A DNA stretch of 64,000 bases from Anolis carolinensis (lineage: Eukaryota). This document shows positions 37,804 through 64,000 of the stretch, piece after piece. Below the pieces are notes generated by a model. It had not been told where the DNA came from. It did not search any database and worked only from the letters and a program-made list of their open reading frames with translations. Position numbers and translations under genes: made by a program. The stretch is from positions 23,040,782 through 23,104,781 of the forward strand of contig NC_085842.1 of assembly GCF_035594765.1 (NCBI RefSeq). Direction: 5' to 3'. Numbering within the stretch: position 1 is the stretch's first letter; every line of letters begins with the position of its first letter.

Positions 37804-37840
37804 TTCCTGGAAGAGAAGAGAAAGCCTGAGAAACGAAAGT
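37804..37840 (+). promoter_or_regulatory. GAS plus ISRE upstream of TRIM copy 3
   Basis: TTCCTGGAA (37804-37812) and GAAACGAAAGT (37830-37840), 50 nt before the ATG. Confidence 0.6.
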
Positions 37841-38552
37841 GAGGCTGTTAACTTTGTCTGGTCTTTGCAGTGGAGCAGCATCAGCAGCCATGGCCTCTGG
37901 AGACTCTGTGAAGAAGCTCTGTAAGGAACTGGCTTGTCCCATCTGCTTGGAGTATTTCAAGAAGCCTGTGATGATCATCTCCTGTGGGCACAACTTCTGC
38001 CAATCCTGCCTGGATCAATGCTGGGAGGGGAAAGAGGCCTCCTGCCCACAGTGCAGGGAGAAAGTGCAGGAAGGGGACATCAGGCCAAATAGACAGCTGG
38101 CAAACCTGGTGGAGGTAGCCAAGGAACTGGAGAGCCAGAAGGCGGAAGAGAAGGGGAGATTCTGCCAGTGGCACCAGGAGCCCCTCAAGCTCTTCTGCAA
38201 GCACCACAAAGCCCCCATCTGTGTGGTGTGCGACAGGTCGAAGGAGCACAAAAACCACAAAGTGATTCCTCTGGACGAGGCCTCAAAGGAGTACAAGGTA
38301 GGAGGAGGGGGTAAAATAGGGACCCCTAACAAGGTGTTGTGGTGCATCCCCACCCCACAATGCAGGTCTGTGGCTGGCAGTTCAATATTTCCCCAGGTCC
38401 TGAGGTTTTCAGGGATAAAGAGTTAAATTATTTTTTTAGAATTAATTCAGTTGGATTCCACTTTAGCTGCCATGGCTCAGTGCTACAAACCATGATAGTT
38501 GCAATTGTACAAGGTCTTTTACATTTTTGCCAAAATGTTACAATGCCTTAAA

Positions 38553-38999: not shown

Positions 39000-40990
39000 T
39001 TCCCTCAATATACAGTGGAGGTGAAGAATAGATTTCAGGGACTAGATTTAATAAATAGAGTCTCAGAAGAACTATAGACAGAAGTCCACAACATTGTTCA
39101 GGAGGCAACAACAAAGTACGTCCCTAAGAAAAAGAAAACCAAGAAGGCAAGACGGTTGTCTGCTAAGACACTGGAAGTAGCCCAAGAAAGAAGGAAGGTG
39201 AAAGGAAACAGCGATAGGGGGAGACATGCCCAATCAAATGCATAATTCCAGAGGTTAGCCAGAAGAGACAAGGAACTATTTTTAAACAAGCAATGCATGG
39301 AAGTGGAAGAAGACAATAGAATAGGAAGGACAAGAGACCTCTTCCAGAAAATCAGAAACATTGGAGGCAAATTTCAGGGAAAAATGGGCATGATCAAAAA
39401 CAAAGATGGCAAGGACCTAGCAGAAGCTGAAGAGATCAAGAAAAGATGGCGAGAATATACAGAAGATCTGTATAGGAAGGATAATAATATAGAAGATAGC
39501 TTTGACGGTGTGGTGAGTGAATTAGAACCAGACATCCTGAGGAGTGAGGTTGAATGGGCCTTAAGAAGCACTGCTAACAACAAGGCAGCAGGAGACGATG
39601 GGATCCCAGCTGGGTTGTTTAAAAGGTGATGCTGTCAAGGTGACGCATGCCAGATGCTAGCAAATATGGAAAACACAAGATTGGCCATCAGATTGGAAAA
39701 AAATTCAATTTATATCCCCATACCAAAAAAGGGAAACGCTAAAGAATGCTCAAACTTCCGTACAGTGGCACTTATTTCCCATGCCAGTAAGGTAATGCTC
39801 AAGATCCTGCAAGGAAGACTCCAGCAATACATGGAGCGAGAGTTGCCAGATGTCCAAGCTGGGTTCAGAAAAGGCAGAGGAATGAGAGACCAAATTGCCA
39901 ATATCCGCTGGATAATGGAGGAAGCCAGGGAGTTTCAGAAAAACATCTACTTCTGCTTTATTGACTATTCTAAAGCCTTTGACTGTGTGGATCATAATAA
40001 AATATGGCATGTTCTTGGTGGTATGGGGATACCAAGTTACCTTGTCTGTCTCCTGAGAAATCTGTATAAAGACCAAGTGGCCACAGTAAGAACAGATCAC
40101 GGAACAACAGACTGGTTCAAGACTGGGAAAGGAGTGCGGCAGGGCTGCATACTTTCACCCTCCCTATTCAACTTGTACGCAGAACACATCAGGCGACGTG
40201 CGGGGCTTGAGGAATCCAAGGCCGGAGTTAAAATTGCTGGAAGAAACATTAACAACCTTAGATATGCAGATGATACCACTCTGGTGGCCGAAAATGAGGA
40301 AGAGCTGAGGAGCCTTATCACCAAGGTGAAAGAAGAAAGTGCAAAAGCGGGGTTGCAGTTAAACATTAAGAAAACCAAGATCATGGCAACCACACCTATT
40401 GATAACTGGCAAATAGAAGGAGAAAACATGGAGGCAGTGACAGACTTTATATTTCTAGGAGTGAAGATCATTGTAGATGCAGACTGCAGCCAGGAAATCA
40501 GAAGACGTCTACTTCTTGGGAGGAGAGCAATGGCCAACCTTGATACAATAGTGAAGAGCAGAGACATCACACTGGCCACGAAGATCCGCATATTCAAACC
40601 TATGGATGGGAGAGCTGGACCATAAGGAAGGCTGAGCAAAGGAAGATAGACGCTTTTGAACTCTGGTGCTGGAGGAAAATCCTGAGAGTGCCTTGGACCG
40701 CAAGAAAACCCAACCAGTCCATCCTTCAGGAAATAATGCCCGGCTGCTCACTGGAGGGAAGGATATTGGAGGCAAAGATGAGGTATTTTGAGAAGACAGT
40801 AAAGCTTGGAAAAGATCACGATGCTGGGGAAAATGGAAGGAAAAAGGAAGAGAGGCTGACCAAGGGCAAGATGGATGGATGGTATCTTTGAAGTGACTGG
40901 CTTGACCTTGAAGGAACTGGGGGTGGTGATGGCCGACAGGGAGCTCTGGCGTGGACTGGTCCATGCGGTCACGAAGAGTCGGAAACGAAC
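39000..40990 (+). mobile_element. BovB (RTE) LINE, 5'-truncated, relatively young
   Basis: 323-aa RT ORF 39654-40625 (ISHASKVMLKILQ, FIDYSKAFDCVDH, GVRQGCILSP, LRYADDTTL); frameshifts near 39625 and 40600; 3' end catgcggtcacgaagagtcggaaacga. Confidence 0.9.
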
Positions 40991-43900: not shown

Positions 43901-44280
43901 TCTTGCAAAACATTGCACAGTCGAACTGCCAGCTCCAATATGTTACCATTCTGTTTCTATATCTCAGAATGTGGTCAAGTCTCCTTCTCTGGAGGTTTTT
44001 AAATAAAAGCTGGATGGCTGACTGGTGGGAGTGCTTTGATTGTACATTCTAGCATTGCATCTGGTTGGACTGAAGAGATCCAGATTCCTATTATATTGGT
44101 AGTTGCATTTGATCAGTGTTTTGATGGCTCAGCCAAAAAAGCTGCTTGCAAAATAGTGCCAGTGGTTACATAGATCTACCCATCTCCTCAGTTTGTGGAG
44201 GGAGAGCTGCTTCACCCTCCTGAGTTTGCTTCGTTGATTTCATTAGTGTTGTAGTTGGGCCAAGGGGCAGTAATGGTTCT

Positions 44281-44817
44281 ATGGGTGAAACAGCTAGAAG
44301 GAGAAAAAGGGCTAATAGAGAGCAGGTACTTGATGAAGAACAACAAGTAAAGCGGTTCCAGGAAATGCTTATGGCTCCTTCAGAGAATGAGACGTTTTAT
44401 GGGTTTTCTAGTGATGAGGAGTCCATGCTAGATGATGATTTTGCAGAGAGTAGAGGAACTAAAAGGTCTACTCGAGAGCAGGAGTCAGATGAGGAAAGAG
44501 AAAGGAAAAAGATCTGGGATATACTCACTGCTCCCACGAATGAGGAGACTTTTGAGGGATTCTCCGGGAATGATGGGTCTGGGAGTGAGATGGAGAATGC
44601 TGACTGGACTCAAGTTAATGTGGATGATGAGCCAGCCCATGGGGCTGCATCAGGGGATTGGCAAGCCTCTCATACTTCTGGGACATGGGGAGATCTAAGT
44701 CTTGAACAGAGATGGAGGGGCTGGAGGGATGGGAGGCAAGGTCCACTAACAAGATCAAGATCAGCTGTGATTGATGAGGAAAGGGCGGAGGTCTCATCAG
44801 CATCGGACTCCGACTAG
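44281..44817 (+). CDS. LTR-encoded acidic 178-aa ORF with two tandem FxGF (IBM/TIM-like) repeats
   Basis: Open from 44248. Repeats KRANREQVLDEEQQVKRFQEMLMAPSENETFYGFS and KRSTREQESDEERERKKIWDILTAPTNEETFEGFS are conserved at the protein level while the DNA has diverged. Confidence 0.6.
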   Translation: MGETARRRKRANREQVLDEEQQVKRFQEMLMAPSENETFYGFSSDEESMLDDDFAESRGTKRSTREQESDEERERKKIWDILTAPTNEETFEGFSGNDGSGSEMENADWTQVNVDDEPAHGAASGDWQASHTSGTWGDLSLEQRWRGWRDGRQGPLTRSRSAVIDEERAEVSSASDSD

Positions 44818-45022
44818 TAAGTTAAAAGTAGAGTTTGGAAAACTATTGCCTTGCAGAAGGCAAGGTATCGTTTTGGGGACATTGCTTTGTTGCTGCCTGT
44901 TCTCCTTGGGTCCTGGCTGTGCAGCTTCCTGATAATCCGGTTTGAGTCCTGCTTCAGTGTTCCTGGCTTCTGACTCCAGCTCTTGACAACAACGTTCCAG
45001 TTCGACGTTTCCAGTTCAGCGT

Positions 45023-45885
45023 TGTCACGCTCAAGGCAGCGGAGCACCAAGAACCATACACGGAGGCCAATAAACTATCTAATATCTTTATTAAGGAAAT
45101 ATATAAGAATAATAAAAACAAGTAGAAAATATAGTCCAGAGTCAGACCTATCAAAGGAGGTCAAATGTAGTCCAGAAATAGTTTGTCCAATAAATGATAT
45201 TAGAGTCCAAAGATAAAATCCAATAAACCGAAACACACACTATTGCCAAGCAATAGTGTGGGGAATTGTCCAGAGTCTTTCAAGGTCCAAGGTAAATTCA
45301 CAAGAAGGCAGGAATCAAAGCTTGAAACTGAGAACAAGGTCCGTGGCTAGGAACGAGGCAAGGCAAATCTTGAATACTTGAATAAACAAGGCAAGGAAAC
45401 TGGATTGCGGACTTAGCGAAGTCCACACAAGGCTGGAAACACGAACTCACTCCTGAAGCTGCTCTGTTGTCTCCGCACGGAGCCAACCGTGTCAGGCACC
45501 TTTAACTGGGTCTCGTTTTCCCGCCAAACAGGTGTCCAGCGTTCTCTTTCCCTAGAGAACAGGGAACGAACCCCAACTTTCCAGATGTGAGACTCCCTGG
45601 ATTTCCCAGGGGAAACATGGCTAATCAGCGTCTTGTTTGCCTGCAATTCTGACACTCCTGCGAATTCGCTCTTTCACTCCCCTGTCAGCAGCAAAGGATT
45701 GTCTCCTAGCGAAGGGAGGTGAGAGCTGTTCAAGGTCGGTTTTAATTGGTTCTTGGGCAAGAACATCAACATCAGGCATCTGGAAGGATTCCGGCTGTTG
45801 TTGATCCGGAGAAAACCCCATGTTTTCATCCTCATCTGCCACAGTGACACTAGGAGCGGGACTACAAGGCCCATGAGGCATCACA
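45023..45885 (-). mobile_element. Solo LTR C (863 bp, Gypsy-like) nested inside element B
   Basis: TGTGATGCC...GCGTGACA on the minus strand, TSD AGCGT (45018-45022 / 45886-45890), AATAAA near the 3' end; ORF 45884-45621 ending RRSVRIAGKQDAD. Confidence 0.9.
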
Positions 45886-48189
45886 AGCGTTTGCCTTGGC
45901 GTTTCTGATCCATTGTTTCCAGTTCGGTGTTTGCTTTGGCATTTCTGCTCTAGCATTTCCACTTCGGCGTTTGCCTTGGCGTTTCTGCTTCAGCGCTTCC
46001 AGATTGGCGTTTGCCTTGGCATTTCTGCTCCAGCGTTTCCAGTTCGGCATTAGCTTTGGCGTCCCTGCTTTGGTGTCCCTGCTTTGGCGTCCCTGCTTTG
46101 GCGCTCTTACTTTGGCTTTCCTGGCTTCTGAACCCGGTCTGGCTCCTGACCTTCGTCTGTGCTTGCTCCTGGCTTGGCGTCTCCGTTTTTCTCCCTTTGG
46201 TCTTTGGAACTCGGCCTGGCTTCGACTACGATTCTGCTTGCTGCCTTTCGGAGCATTTTGCTCTTTTCCAGCCCTTTGCACCACAGCATTGAGTGGCGTC
46301 GGTTCTGGTAATGTTTCTGTTACATTTGCTGTGGATTATCAAGCCAGATAATCCGGATTATTCTTTTGTTCTTGCTTTTGACTCCTTTTGAACTAAGACG
46401 TTTACTTTTGAAGAGAAACACTGCATTTAAGTGTTTCTGAGTTTAAAATATCTTTTAATAAATATTTAAGAACTTTCCTTTATGTGTGTGGCTTTTTAAG
46501 AGGCGGCTGTGTCACGACAATTAGTAATTGGATACCCTGTTTTTTCAGATATATGAGAGTGGTCTCCATGCAAATGCCTCTGCTGAGTTCTTTCTTTCCT
46601 TCATTTACAGGATATCAGAAGCTTCTTACAGGGGTAAGTTAATTTCATCTCCTCCTCCCACTAAAACTCAAATTTCCACATGAAGTACATGACCCTCAAA
46701 AGCAAAAGCGTGCTGCAGGAGTCTGTGTTTGGCTGGGGTTCACAGGAAGAATTGGACTTGATGATCAATGAGACCCCTTCAGCTCTATGATTCTGTGGAG
46801 CATTTACACTCTAGAATTAATGCCATTTGACAACAACTTTGATTTGTTACCCACCTCTCTTCATGATTCGAGGCAGTACACAATCCAGCCAAAGCACACC
46901 ACCATGAATAAATGCCATAAAATGTGTATATTAAAACACACCATCACAAAACAATATATATTGAAATACACAATGCAAGGATTAAAATGCAGTAGCAATG
47001 GAATATAAATTGAAAGTCCATTCATTCTACAATGAAGATGCATCATCTGATATTTTTATTTCTCCTCCAGGCATAAGAATAAGGAGAAATCCAAGACTTC
47101 TGCAGCCTTTCCTCCTGCCCTGAAGTGGAAGATCTGGGACGTCTGTGATATCAATCCATTTTTGGAGGCCGTCATGAAGCAATTTAGAGGTAAGGGAGAT
47201 TGTCTGCAAGGAATTTCAGTGAGACTTGACCTTGGTCTGGAAAGGGTAACATTCCATGGCATTTCAAAAATTAGGGCCACAGAACAGCAAATTGGAGTGC
47301 TAATGTTTCCTTTCAAATGTGAAACAAAATTGTATCAATTTGCTCAATTGTTTTTTTTTCTTTTCCATTTTATTTCTAGTGAGGAATAACATTTCAGAGT
47401 GAAGCAAAATAAAATGAAAATGTCGAGGGCCCTGATCAGCCTTACTCTGGTCCATGTAACCTGCAAATGTGGAGGACTAGTGGTAGTCTGAACAAACTGT
47501 GTGGCTTGAGTTCTAATATACACATTTTATCCTATTTATTCATGGTGGTGTGCTTTGGCTGGATTGTGTCCTGCTTCGAGCCATGAGGCCAAGAGTTGGG
47601 CCTAGATTTTGATTCAAAGGTGATTATGATCATTGCACAGCCAGCCCTCCACATTCGCAGGGGTTAAGAATGTGGGATCTCAGGGGAAAAAGGGAGCGGG
47701 AATGTGGAGGACTCAGAGATTCCTAGAGAGAACATGTTAATCAATGAGACATAACTCTCTGCTGGTGGCCACACAACGTCTCTTGGGTACAGGATCTCAG
47801 CTTCCCTGTGTTGTTTTCTCCTCATTTTCTGAGAGTCACCATGTTGTGCTAAGACTCACTCTCACCTTTCTCTCTCCAGCCTCTCTGGAATCTGGACTTC
47901 AGCAGCAAAAAGGTAAATAAATGAACACAGACAACAGTAAAAAAGCATTTTATTTCTATTGACTGTGAATGAGTTGATTGGAAACTAGAATGCCTTAATA
48001 CGATAATATCAAATCAGACATCCAGATCTTTTTCCCCAAACGAATGAGAACTATGTTATGCAACACAGGTTAAGAGAAAATAGCTTTAAACTGGAAGTTC
48101 TTCTTTGAGATTGTATGAAGTCTGATTTCTGGCTTCTCGGAGTTGTGATTAAATAGGTAGATTTTTAAAGCTCTGATCATTGGCATGTA

Positions 48190-48512: not shown

Positions 48513-50704
48513 TATCTGGATTCTGTATAGAATCCCCAAAAGAGTGTCAAAACAACCTGAACACTGACTATTTATGGCTCCTTGCTTCAAGCCTACTTTA
48601 GTGGCACACATTATGCATTCCTTAAAAAAGAATTGGTCTCCAACTCAATATGAAATATGTGGGACATTAATTTTGTTATAAAACCAGATGATTAGTCTGC
48701 CTTCAAATTCTTTCTGACTTGGCAAACCAAGACGATCCTATCACAGGGTTTTCTGGGGCTGAAAGTGTGTCATTGGCACAAGTTTACCCAGTGGGTTTCC
48801 ATCACTGAGGGGGAATTGAACCCTGGTCTCCATCGTCATAGTCCCACCAACCCATGCTCAGGTGTTGCTTGTAAGTAGCATAATGTAGAATCATCTAGAT
48901 TTGAGATGGAGAGGGAATATTTCTTTGTTACTTTTTAGAATCAGATAGAAGCTGATCTTCTATCAGTTTACACTTTTATTCATTCATTCATTCATTCATT
49001 CTCTCTTCACCCTTCATTTGTTTCCATCACCAACAGCACATGTGACTCTAGATCCAAGCACAGCCCATCCTCAACTCATCTGCTCTGAAGATCTCAGACG
49101 TGTGACCTTTGGAGAGAAAGAGCAAGATCTTCCTGACAATCCTGAGAGATTCAACGAGTATTTTTTCGTGTTGGGTCAGGAGGGATTCAATGGAGGCAGG
49201 CATTTCTGGGAAGTCCTTCTGGGGAGTGAGGGAGAATGGTCTGTGGGAGTTGCCAGAAAGTCTGTGCAGAGAAAGGGCTGCATTCCCTATGTCCCTCATG
49301 CTGGGATCTGGCAAGTGGAAAAGTGTTGGAGTGAATACTGGTTCTTCTCCAACAACGGTGTGGCCTCCCCTCTGAATCTGAGCAAGGAATCGAAGAGGGT
49401 CCGTGTGACACTGAACTACGAAGGGGGTCGGGTGGCCTTTTACGATGCAGACTCGGCAGCCCTGATGTATGAATACCCTCCAGCCTCTTTCTCAGGAGAG
49501 ACCCTCCTCCCGTTCTTTTCTATGTTCTCAGAAGGCCACCTGGAACTCTCTCCGTAAGGATGGAGAGCAATGTCCAAAGACTCACACCATCTGAGACACA
49601 AGAGGAGCTTTATCTCTGGAGATCTGGAGCTGTGGATTCTTTTTGTTCTCTTTGTGAAACCTCTCTGCTCTCTCTTTACACCTTTGTGAAAACCTGGTTT
49701 GGAGGCTGGAGTGTGAATGAAGAAGCCATTCCTCATGGCAGTGCTCAGTGCATGGATCAACTGGGGATTTCTTCCATTTGGAAAGCCTAGCTACAACAAC
49801 AACAACAAAGAGGGAATAAAAGATGCAAATTGATTTTTAGTCAAGAATTCCATTTATTGGAATTTAGTAGTAAGTGGACAGCCTATCTATTTGCCCCTCC
49901 CTTTCCTGGCCTTTCCCAGAGATGTAGGCAGGCCTTGGCTGTGTAGTTAAAGTTAAACAAAACGGGTGATAAAATGCATCCATGCTTCACCCTCTTGCCA
50001 AATTGAAACAATTCCTTTTCTCTGTCTTCGTCCTTCGGCCCTTTGTCCTGAGTAAAAATTACACATTAGGAAAATCCAATGCCGTGTTGCAACCATTTTT
50101 TATGTACAATCCATAGCTTTTCGTGATCTGTACAATCAAGGGCTAAATGATAAAGCACAGATTGATTTTCCTTGATATGTTTCTGCACTCCATTATCCAA
50201 AGTATGTTTCAGTATGATTCCTTGTGTCTCCTTGTTTTCTGAACGCAGCACGGACATCTTGCATTTTTATTCTGTAGAAAGTAAAATACTTGTTTTGGTA
50301 ACATTTGAGTATCACTTGTTTCATCAAGGAATGGTTCTATTTGTCCAAAATCTTGGGTCTCCCAGTGTGCCTGAGCCCACTGAAAACATGCAAGGATGAA
50401 GGCAAGATCAGAAATGGTTTTATGCAGCAGTGGTCAACGTGGATACTACAGGACACAGCGTAATCCCACATCTGACGTGCCTCCCAGTCACAAGTGTGGG
50501 TATTACAAAGTGGTCATTACAAAGAGTGGGCATGTGCTGTGATTCGTGCAGATTACGATCCTTAATCTCATTGGTCCAAAAGTCCATTCATTTATGGTTT
50601 GTAATTGGTGCATAGTGTAGAATAAACTGGCATTGGTTAAACTTGAAGCTGTGGGTTTGAGAATGGAGTGCCGTTTGGGTCTTGGGACAATGGGTGTTGG
50701 AGTG

Positions 50705-55439: not shown

Positions 55440-56299
55440 TGTGATGACTCATGGGCCTTGTAGTCCTGTTCCTAGTACTATTGCGACAGACGAAGAGGAA
55501 AACATGGGATTTTTGCCGGTTCAGCCAGAGCCGGAGCCTCCTCAGTCTCCTCACCTGCAGGATGTTGATGTTTGTCCTCAAGAATCCAGCCAAACAAGCC
55601 TTGGGCAGAATTCTCCCCCGTTTTCCCGAAAGGACAATTATAATAGAGATAGAGGGGCGAGGGAGGCTAATCGCCGGTCTCTCAGAATCGCAGCCAGACA
55701 ATTAGCTGATTAAGCCTGTTTCCCTTGGGAAATTCTAAGGAGTCATGCATCTGGACACAGTTTGGGTTTCACTTCTTGTTCTCCAGGGAAAGTGTTCCTT
55801 GGCGGGAAAACAAGATCCTATATAGGTGTTTTGCCGCAAGGGGAACCTTGCGGAGTCAATTCGTCAGCTCGAGGAGTGAGATCGTGTGTGACTCCAGTTC
55901 CTTGTTTCCCGGATCAAGTTCAAGCCTGCCTTGTTTCGCGTTTGCCACGGACCTTGTTCTTGCTTCTTGTTTTGCCTCGTATCAAGTCTTGTTTGCCAAG
56001 AATCCAGTTTGTTCTCTAGCCTTGTTGTCAAGCTTCAATGGACTAAAAGACCTTGTCATCTCCCCACACTATTGCTTGGCAAAGTGTGTGTTTCGGTTAA
56101 TGGATTATAACTTTGGACTCTAATATCTCATATTGGACATTATTTTCCTGGACTATATTTGACCTTTCCTGAAAGGTCTACTTCTGAAGTTTATTCTTCA
56201 CTTGTTTTTATTGACTTTATATATTCCTAAAATAAAGATATTAGATAGAATCTGGCCTCTGCGCATGGTTATTGGTGTTCTGTAGCCTGGGTCCTGACA
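55440..56299 (+). mobile_element. Solo LTR E (860 bp, Gypsy-like) in intron 2 of copy 4
   Basis: TGTGATGAC...CCTGACA, TSD AAACC (55435-55439 / 56300-56304), TATATA at ~55819, AATAAA at 56232; ORF 55441-55713 ending RRSLRIAARQLAD. Confidence 0.92.
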
Positions 56300-62600: not shown

Positions 62601-64000
62601 CAGGGCCGGCCGGAGATATTTTTTGATGTAAAGCGGGGGCGCTGAAAAGCGCCCCCGCCACCGGCGCCCTGGCCCCGCCCAGCGTGCCCTGGCCCCGCCT
62701 CCCACGCTGCGTGGGAGGCGGGGCCAGCTCTGACGCCGCTCCCCCCCCCCCCGCCCAGCGTGCCTTGGCCCTGCCTCCCACGCAACGTGGGAGGCGGGGC
62801 CAGGGCACGCTGGGCGGGGGGGCGGCGTCAGAGCTGGCCCCGCCTCCCACGTTACCCCCGCTCGCCCGTCTGGCCTTGTGTAGCAGGCCAGACGGGCGAG
62901 CGGGGGTAACGTGGGAGGCGGGGCCAGCTCTGACGCCGCTCCCCCCCCCCCCCGCCCAGCGTGCCTTGGCCCTGCCTCCCACGCAACGTGGGAGGCGGGG
63001 CCAGGGCACGCTGGGCGGGGGGGGCGGCGTCAGAGCTGGCCCCGCCTCCCACGTTACCCCCGCTCGCCCGTCTGGCCTTGTGTAGCAGGCCAGACGGGCG
63101 AGCGGGGGTAACGTGGGAGGCGGGGCCAGCTCTGACGCCGCTCCCCCCCCCCCCGCCCAGCGTGCCTTGGCCCTGCCTCCCACGCAACGTGGGAGGCGGG
63201 GCCAGGGCACGCTGGGCGGGGGGGGCGGCGTCAGAGCTGGCCCCGCCTCCCACGTTACCCCCGCTCGCCCGTCTGGCCTTGTGTAGCAGGCCAGACGGGC
63301 GAGCGGGGGTAACGTGGGAGGCGGGGCCAGCTCTGACGCCGCTCCCCCCCCCCCCCGCCCAGCGTGCCTTGGCCCTGCCTCCCACGCAACGTGGGAGGCG
63401 GGGCCAGGGCACGCTGGGCGGGGGGGGCGGCGTCAGAGCTGGCCCCGCCTCCCACGTTACCCCCGCTCGCCCGTCTGGCCTTGTGTAGCAGGCCAGACGG
63501 GCGAGCGGGGGTAACGTGGGAGGCGGGGCCAGCTCTGACGCCGCTCCCCCCCCCCCCCGCCCAGCGTGCCTTGGCCCTGCCTCCCACGCAACGTGGGAGG
63601 CGGGGCCAGGGCACGCTGGGCGGGGGGGCGGCGTCAGAGCTGGCCCCGCCTCCCACGTTACCCCCGCTCGCCCGTCTGGCCTTGTGTAGCAGGCCAGACG
63701 GGCGAGCGGGGGTAACGTGGGAGGCGGGGCCAGCTCTGACGCCGCTCCCCCCCCCCCCCGCCCAGCGTGCCTTGGCCCTGCCTCCCACGCAACGTGGGAG
63801 GCGGGGCCAGGGCACGCTGGGCGGGGGGGGCGGCGTCAGAGCTGGCCCCGCCTCCCACGTTACCCCCGCTCGCCCGACTGGCCTTGTGTAGCAGGCCAGA
63901 CGGGCGAGCGGGGGTAACGTGGGAGGCGGGGCCAGCTCTGACGCCGCTCCCCCCCCCCCGCCCAGCGTGCCTTGGCCCTGCCTCCCACGCAACGTGGGAG
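62601..64000. repeat. GC-rich ~200-202-bp palindromic tandem array (at least 6 units), probably internal to a hAT element starting at 62601
   Basis: Homology to the paralogous 3' UTR stops at ...ctcataga|CAGGGCCGGC; unit start gggccagctc recurs at 62721, 62921, 63123 and onward; each unit is two near-perfect hairpins. Confidence 0.9.

Follow-up and report, generated by a model that had tools for sequence, protein, structure and literature searches.

Which protein does an uninterrupted 189-codon frame inside a lizard long terminal repeat (LTR) belong to, and what might that protein do for the element that carries it? The frame lies in the window, the 64,000-nt stretch of Anolis carolinensis contig NC_085842.1 analysed here, across which TRIM genes (RING/B-box...SPRY) are clustered. 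A first-pass annotation had read it as an accessory protein whose two acidic repeats imitate host ligands of LEDGF/p75, and had likened them to the repeats of JPO2.

A solo LTR in a TRIM gene intron

The element at 44247-46519 is a Ty3/Gypsy solo LTR within a TRIM gene intron (Table 1). Its termini are TG..CA (TGTTGTAG...TCACGACA) and both flanks read ATTAG, in agreement with the first-pass description of a TG..CA element with a 5-bp target-site duplication; because two paralogous TRIM introns of the window are contiguous over the same site, the element is a genuine insertion. The frame was likewise found as described, with two repeats, basic patches and a terminal PLTRSRS over 189 uninterrupted codons, the first base of which is base 2 of the LTR. 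The window copy, being a solo LTR, is not expected to make the tail protein.

Table 1 Features of the focal element and its surroundings (positions in the window).
Feature	Position	Strand	Remarks
RING/B-box exon	37830-38426		flanks the focal element on one side
Left target-site duplication, ATTAG	44242..44246	+	basis: empty site in paralogous TRIM introns
Solo LTR, chromodomain-less Ty3/Gypsy family	44247..46519	+	~1.4 kb plus nested insert
LTR-coded part of integrase C-terminal tail, 189 codons	44248..44817	+	severed from pol in this solo LTR
Basic patch RRRKR	44296..44310	+	possible nuclear localisation signal
TIM-like unit 1	44356..44406	+	hydrophobic helix pattern, acidic S/T linker, FxGF
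TIM-like unit 2	44512..44562	+	counterpart of the unit of the one-motif sister family
DWTQV	44602..44616	+	conserved acidic Trp motif
TRSRS basic motif	44749..44763	+	RSRS conserved
Nested solo LTR, kin of chromodomain-bearing family	45023..45885	-	AGCGT duplication; own integrase-tail frame
Right target-site duplication, ATTAG	46520..46524	+	
SPRY exon	48949-49557		flanks the focal element on the other side

We note several features of the surroundings. Between 18500 and 62400 the TRIM unit, made up of RING/B-box and SPRY exons, is repeated in tandem to give four units at a spacing of 9-13 kb. A broken LINE-type (non-LTR) reverse transcriptase occupies 39246-40891 in the same TRIM intron region, and a GC-rich tandem array at 62740-63960 consists of ~201-202 bp units in both orientations. 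The nested LTR has a tail frame of its own, and a related copy lies at ~55440-56299 (+). The tail of the chromodomain-bearing family, seen in these copies and at L090, contains an acidic xxGF (DEDENMGF in the window) and RRSxRI; we take the latter to resemble the nucleosome-binding motif of HMGN proteins.

The frame as the C-terminal tail of integrase

A DNA search of the genome with the element gave 1190 candidates, 40 of which were scored (identity 92-100%). Copies of the focal family are mostly solo LTRs of ~1.3-1.5 kb; an exact 5-bp duplication borders 18 of the 29 other top copies (2 ends were missed in capture), and the full frame is kept in 10 of these 29 or, counting the window, is open in 11 of the 30 top DNA matches. 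In copies that bear an internal region, the tail continues in frame and without a stop from the integrase SH3 domain, via the polypurine tract, into the LTR. SH3_Tf2-1 runs unbroken into the tail at L032 and L034 (E 5e-14 and 5e-15), the first two junction copies, one chosen for a preceding polypurine tract and one for a long open frame, and is joined to it in frame at L049, L051 and L053 as well as at 10 sister-family loci. The 189-codon frame is the C-terminal tail of integrase, in the position of the chromodomain in related chromoviruses. The domain proposed in the first-pass annotation is thus coded in the LTR but is not free-standing, being fused to SH3, and because the frame is integrase's own tail the idea of a tether becomes more direct.

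Two focal-family loci, L082 and L032, retain RNaseH-IN-SH3 pieces. Among the copies examined in the genome we found neither a complete copy of the focal subfamily nor an intact 5' LTR-gag junction for it; because no complete copy was found, its wider anatomy is borrowed from a sister family (L087), which has gag, an unbroken 1219-aa Pol in the order PR-RT-RNaseH-IN, a polypurine tract, and a homologous tail bearing a single FxGF unit, and has neither env nor a chromodomain. LTR pairs of the sister family are 98-99.6% identical. A self-complementary primer match measures 11 nt in this family and 10 nt in the chromodomain family, and a tRNA-type TGG primer site is absent from the sister family. 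At 95-100% identity among its best 150 matches, the one-motif family is young, and the small number of these that fall in a long pol frame suggests that it probably includes many solo LTRs.

A Chromo (PF00385) match is absent from P0002, P0003, P0012 and L082 and present in P0013, and we file the focal family as a chromovirus relative without a chromodomain rather than as a chromovirus. The tail-bearing families form a single clade in both integrase trees (support 100/98 and 100/100), which held no named reference elements and leave the deep nodes open. Fish SH3+Chromo proteins are among the closest relatives of the SH3 region in the databases. The tail clade presumably lost a chromodomain. 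A distant family in the same genome, to which the nested LTR is kin, retains the chromodomain, and its integrase likewise reads into the LTR. A third kind of family, young and abundant (L099-L128), has neither tail nor chromodomain, its fused gag-pol of ~1600 aa ending just past SH3; its abundance indicates that neither module is needed for mobility, and it makes a useful control.

Within the chromodomain-less clade of this genome the number of FxGF units is one, two or possibly three, with two in related subfamilies and a possible third in the database protein P0138. Named protein relatives come from Anolis; within the best 150 of 11,726 representatives, the tail was matched by P0004, P0137, P0138 (Anolis) and P0139. 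Only P0223, among 113 integrase tails scanned in other elements, fits the unit pattern, which was broadened once P0223 had been seen, although its second unit meets the original pattern. P0223, the integrase of which is 70% identical to a Podarcis protein, carries two helix-acidic-FxGF units behind an intact chromodomain (residues 275-345), apparently upstream of the LTR boundary as judged from the protein alone. An independent origin of its motifs is plausible, and a single clade including P0223 was not rejected (p-AU 0.168); such motifs may have been gained more than once.

Compared with the Tf1/Sushi group of chromoviruses (the vertebrate V-clade), sister copies share gag, the PR-RT-RNaseH-IN order, an SH3_Tf2-1 end and the lack of env, and the 11-nt self-complementary primer site of the sister family would fit the self-priming described for that group in the accessible text of PMC6317226. 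The lizard clade differs in having, in place of the chromodomain, an LTR-coded FxGF tail of 140-190 aa. As described in the part of PMC3059260 available, the integrase frame of plant CRM group A elements (CR motif) also enters the 3' LTR, and a putative targeting domain there replaces the chromodomain; the plant tail, however, is of other sequence and lineage and belongs to centromeric elements, whereas the lizard motif resembles a defined host ligand.

Constraint on the tail and likeness to host motifs

We examined selection in 81 sequences, comprising the window, 29 DNA-search copies, 40 protein-search copies, in the choice of which open frames were favoured, and copies taken from 11 longer loci, with CpG sites left out and variants present in at least 3 copies counted as shared. 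Shared variants included 83 nonsynonymous or stop and 68 synonymous changes (1.22), compared with 195 and 47 (4.15) among private variants (p=1.1e-7, ratio ~0.3). The tail evolves under purifying selection, and the first-pass expectation that the frame and its FxGF motifs are conserved as protein held over copies and families. The shared/private contrast was null in the other two sense frames (p=1 and 0.28); the antisense frame with common third positions gave the same signal (p=1.2e-5), the expected shadow of the sense frame. Consistent with coding constraint, codon position 3 hosts 103 of 208 shared variants compared with 80 of 267 private ones, a bias that ends with the frame and is absent directly downstream, and all 4 shared indels are multiples of three, compared with 9 of 26 private ones.

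The F-G-F residues are retained in 76 of 81 copies for unit 1 and, separately, for unit 2, and the Gly and Phe codons of the motifs vary while the residues persist. When the families were aligned (8 rows), 13 columns were invariant, and 12 of them fall in or just before unit 2. The window itself has residues that are rare among copies (F37 in 2/81, M40 in 1/81, N47 in 3/81 and N98 in 3/81). Within subfamilies the motifs (shared/private ratios 0.76/1.88, p=0.065) are not more constrained than the remaining tail (1.37/5.43), so other motifs of the tail may matter equally.

According to the accessible text of PMC9987994, a TND-interacting motif (TIM) consists of a helix, an acidic linker of 8-16 aa and an optional FxGF, the importance of which is specific to LEDGF and HRP2. 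The lizard units share the helix pattern, acidic S/T linker and FxGF of the JPO2 (CDCA7L) and MLL1 (KMT2A) TIMs: the helix pattern, taken as a sequence pattern alone, aligns to JPO2, the 8 residues from helix end to first Phe reproduce the spacing of JPO2 motif 1, and FxGF is invariant in 17 aligned units, which were selected for it. A profile of these 17 natural units, chosen by a pattern requiring FxGF, gave 4 matches with E up to 10 among 177,635 PDB sequences, the top one being 6emo_A, a fusion of the LEDGF integrase-binding domain (IBD) to JPO2 motif 1 (E=5.3e-4), and the second an MLL1 motif (2msr_A, E=0.15), which bears out the likeness to JPO2 proposed in the first-pass annotation. Searched by itself, window repeat 1 had the MLL1 peptide as its sole match, a weak one (E=0.68), and repeat 2 matched no TIM in the PDB; the whole 189-codon frame had no significant match in Pfam or the PDB, and in the ESM Atlas the tail had no usable match and the P0223 tail scored <=0.80. 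In 200,000 composition-preserving shuffles, the helix/linker/FxGF pattern, drawn up only once the repeats had been seen, matched once in 18 cases and twice in none, compared with two matches in the real frame.

The same genome contains LEDGF-domain genes and a CDCA7L-like gene with a motif of identical spacing, which agrees with element units at 8-11 of 22 residues, and the element's tandem pair of motifs is paralleled in this gene. Together the CDCA7L-like and CDCA7-like genes, which owe their names to domain and likeness to JPO2, carry three such motifs (6-11 of 22 residues identical). We rejected recent capture from CDCA7L or CDCA7, for which nucleotide identity is 0.35-0.58, Ser codon families differ and no blastn match has E <0.39; the absence of DNA likeness to host exons beyond the encoded residues fits convergence or an old capture. 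A complex prediction for the lizard LEDGF IBD with repeat 2 scored 0.02 (alignments unused, controls unfolded) and weighs neither way. An intron-less PSIP1/LEDGF-like copy with a stop within its IBD match (L077, C2:143718346-143718648) is likely a processed pseudogene.

A predicted tether to LEDGF/HRP2

We consider it on balance probable that mimicry of host motifs lets integrase dock on LEDGF/HRP2 and thereby skews insertion towards transcribed chromatin. The tail would remain attached to mature integrase, and its two JPO2-like helix-acidic-FxGF motifs would bind the IBD of host LEDGF/p75 or HRP2, with avidity supplied by their pairing and binding perhaps strengthened by CK2 phosphorylation of S/T-x-x-D/E sites, which occur at residues 45, 54, 55, 97 and 106, within or beside the linkers. 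Through the PWWP domain of LEDGF/HRP2, which reads H3K36 methylation, the integration complex would be tethered to transcribed chromatin and insertions biased to gene bodies; the tail may thereby have taken over the targeting role of an ancestral chromodomain. That a lizard Ty3/Gypsy lineage exchanged a heterochromatin-reading chromodomain for tandem TIM mimics, reaching LEDGF/HRP2 by chemistry unlike that of HIV, is a broader proposal that we make tentatively.

HIV integrase contacts the IBD with a folded pocket in the dimer of its catalytic core rather than with an FxGF linear motif. The host factor and the outcome predicted here are nevertheless those of lentiviral tethering as presented in the part of PMC9987994 available, which names lentiviral integrase as the sole case of viral mimicry and makes no mention of transposons. 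Binding of host factors by integrase tails has precedents: in Ty1-AC40 and MLV-BET ET, as far as the accessible accounts go, a short tail motif likewise contacts a host chromatin or transcription factor, with partners other than LEDGF/HRP2 and with no TIM among the motifs. The literature searched, with sources represented in part and with Repbase, Dfam, subscription journals and supplements outside its range, yielded no retrotransposon that carries an FxGF TIM or is linked to LEDGF; the families as such may well have catalogue entries already. The lizard units, unlike the host TIMs of JPO2 and MLL1, reside on a mobile element and, if the proposal is true, would be the first FxGF TIM to do so. 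Retroelements would then have co-opted LEDGF/HRP2 at least twice, by lentiviral folded pocket and by motif mimicry, and the LTR U3 would serve also as evolving coding space for integrase. The choice of insertion site by vertebrate LTR retrotransposons is largely unknown, and here a named host partner and a 20-residue peptide are directly testable, while young chromodomain, TIM-tail and tail-less families in one genome constitute a natural experiment on insertion landscapes.

It is also conceivable, if unlikely, that LEDGF/HRP2 is bound and that the benefit lies in general capture by chromatin, retention in the nucleus, a more stable integrase or transcription of the newly inserted copy rather than in the choice of gene bodies. 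The motif likeness and selection data fit this too, and the basic and RSRS motifs are likewise conserved. Copies lying off the six largest contigs numbered 5/150 for the focal family, 14/150 for the one-motif family and 22/150 for the tail-less family, compared with 15.3% expected by length, in counts that are coarse and biased, being drawn from the best-scoring 150 per family in lists unequal in age and in solo/full-length make-up. The microchromosomes of lizards are gene-dense, so the lack of an excess of TIM-tail copies on small contigs leans against gene-dense targeting. Set against this, the tail occupies the position of the targeting domain in related elements, as far as the available text of PMC3059260 describes them. 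The position of the focal element in a gene intron counts as one observation. We discarded the contig distribution of the chromodomain family (0/150), in which all scores were tied, as an ordering artefact, and an RNA search with the sister-family integrase-LTR junction listed no match, which carries no weight either way.

We consider it less likely again that the acidic-aromatic units bind another TND protein (IWS1, TFIIS, PNUTS, Elongin A or a Mediator subunit) or an unrelated partner. Helix and linker suffice for TIM binding to many TNDs, and the conserved Trp motifs hint at further partners, but FxGF, the part described as specific to LEDGF/HRP2, is invariant across families (both properties as given in the accessible part of PMC9987994).

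That the LTR encodes an accessory protein of its own, active in trans in the manner of sag or nef, as the first-pass annotation proposed, is very improbable: the frame is open in many solo LTRs, as the 11 of 30 above show, and contains internal Met codons, but open frames would also fit a young age, pol is in frame wherever the internal region is intact, no start codon is conserved (Met12 is found in 43/49 near copies but 1/25 far copies), and in the sister family transcription is predicted to begin downstream of the frame, at the self-priming match near LTR position ~460. Equally hard to sustain, and largely refuted, is the reading of the tail as a read-through by-product of a purine-rich LTR or as a conserved DNA element that resembles the motifs by chance, for although the chromodomain family also reads through into its LTR, an NF-kB-like site overlaps window repeat 2 and the antisense frame gives its shadow signal, the integrase fusion exists in the sense frame only and both the third-position bias and the in-frame indels follow that frame. 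The NF-kB-like site, as a candidate conserved feature, was set aside, being present in 1 of 81 copies.

Two further stretches of the tail bear comment. In PLTRSRS, L and T vary between subfamilies and RSRS alone is kept; TRSRS has a weak likeness to acidic-patch arginine anchors, and its fit to the residue spacing of IE1, as given in the accessible text of PMC9040877, is loose. The Trp motifs DWTQV, GDWQ, TWGD and W..WRD (44602-44730) are conserved between subfamilies, and the sister family has them in part. DWTxV matches an ATG8-interacting pattern.
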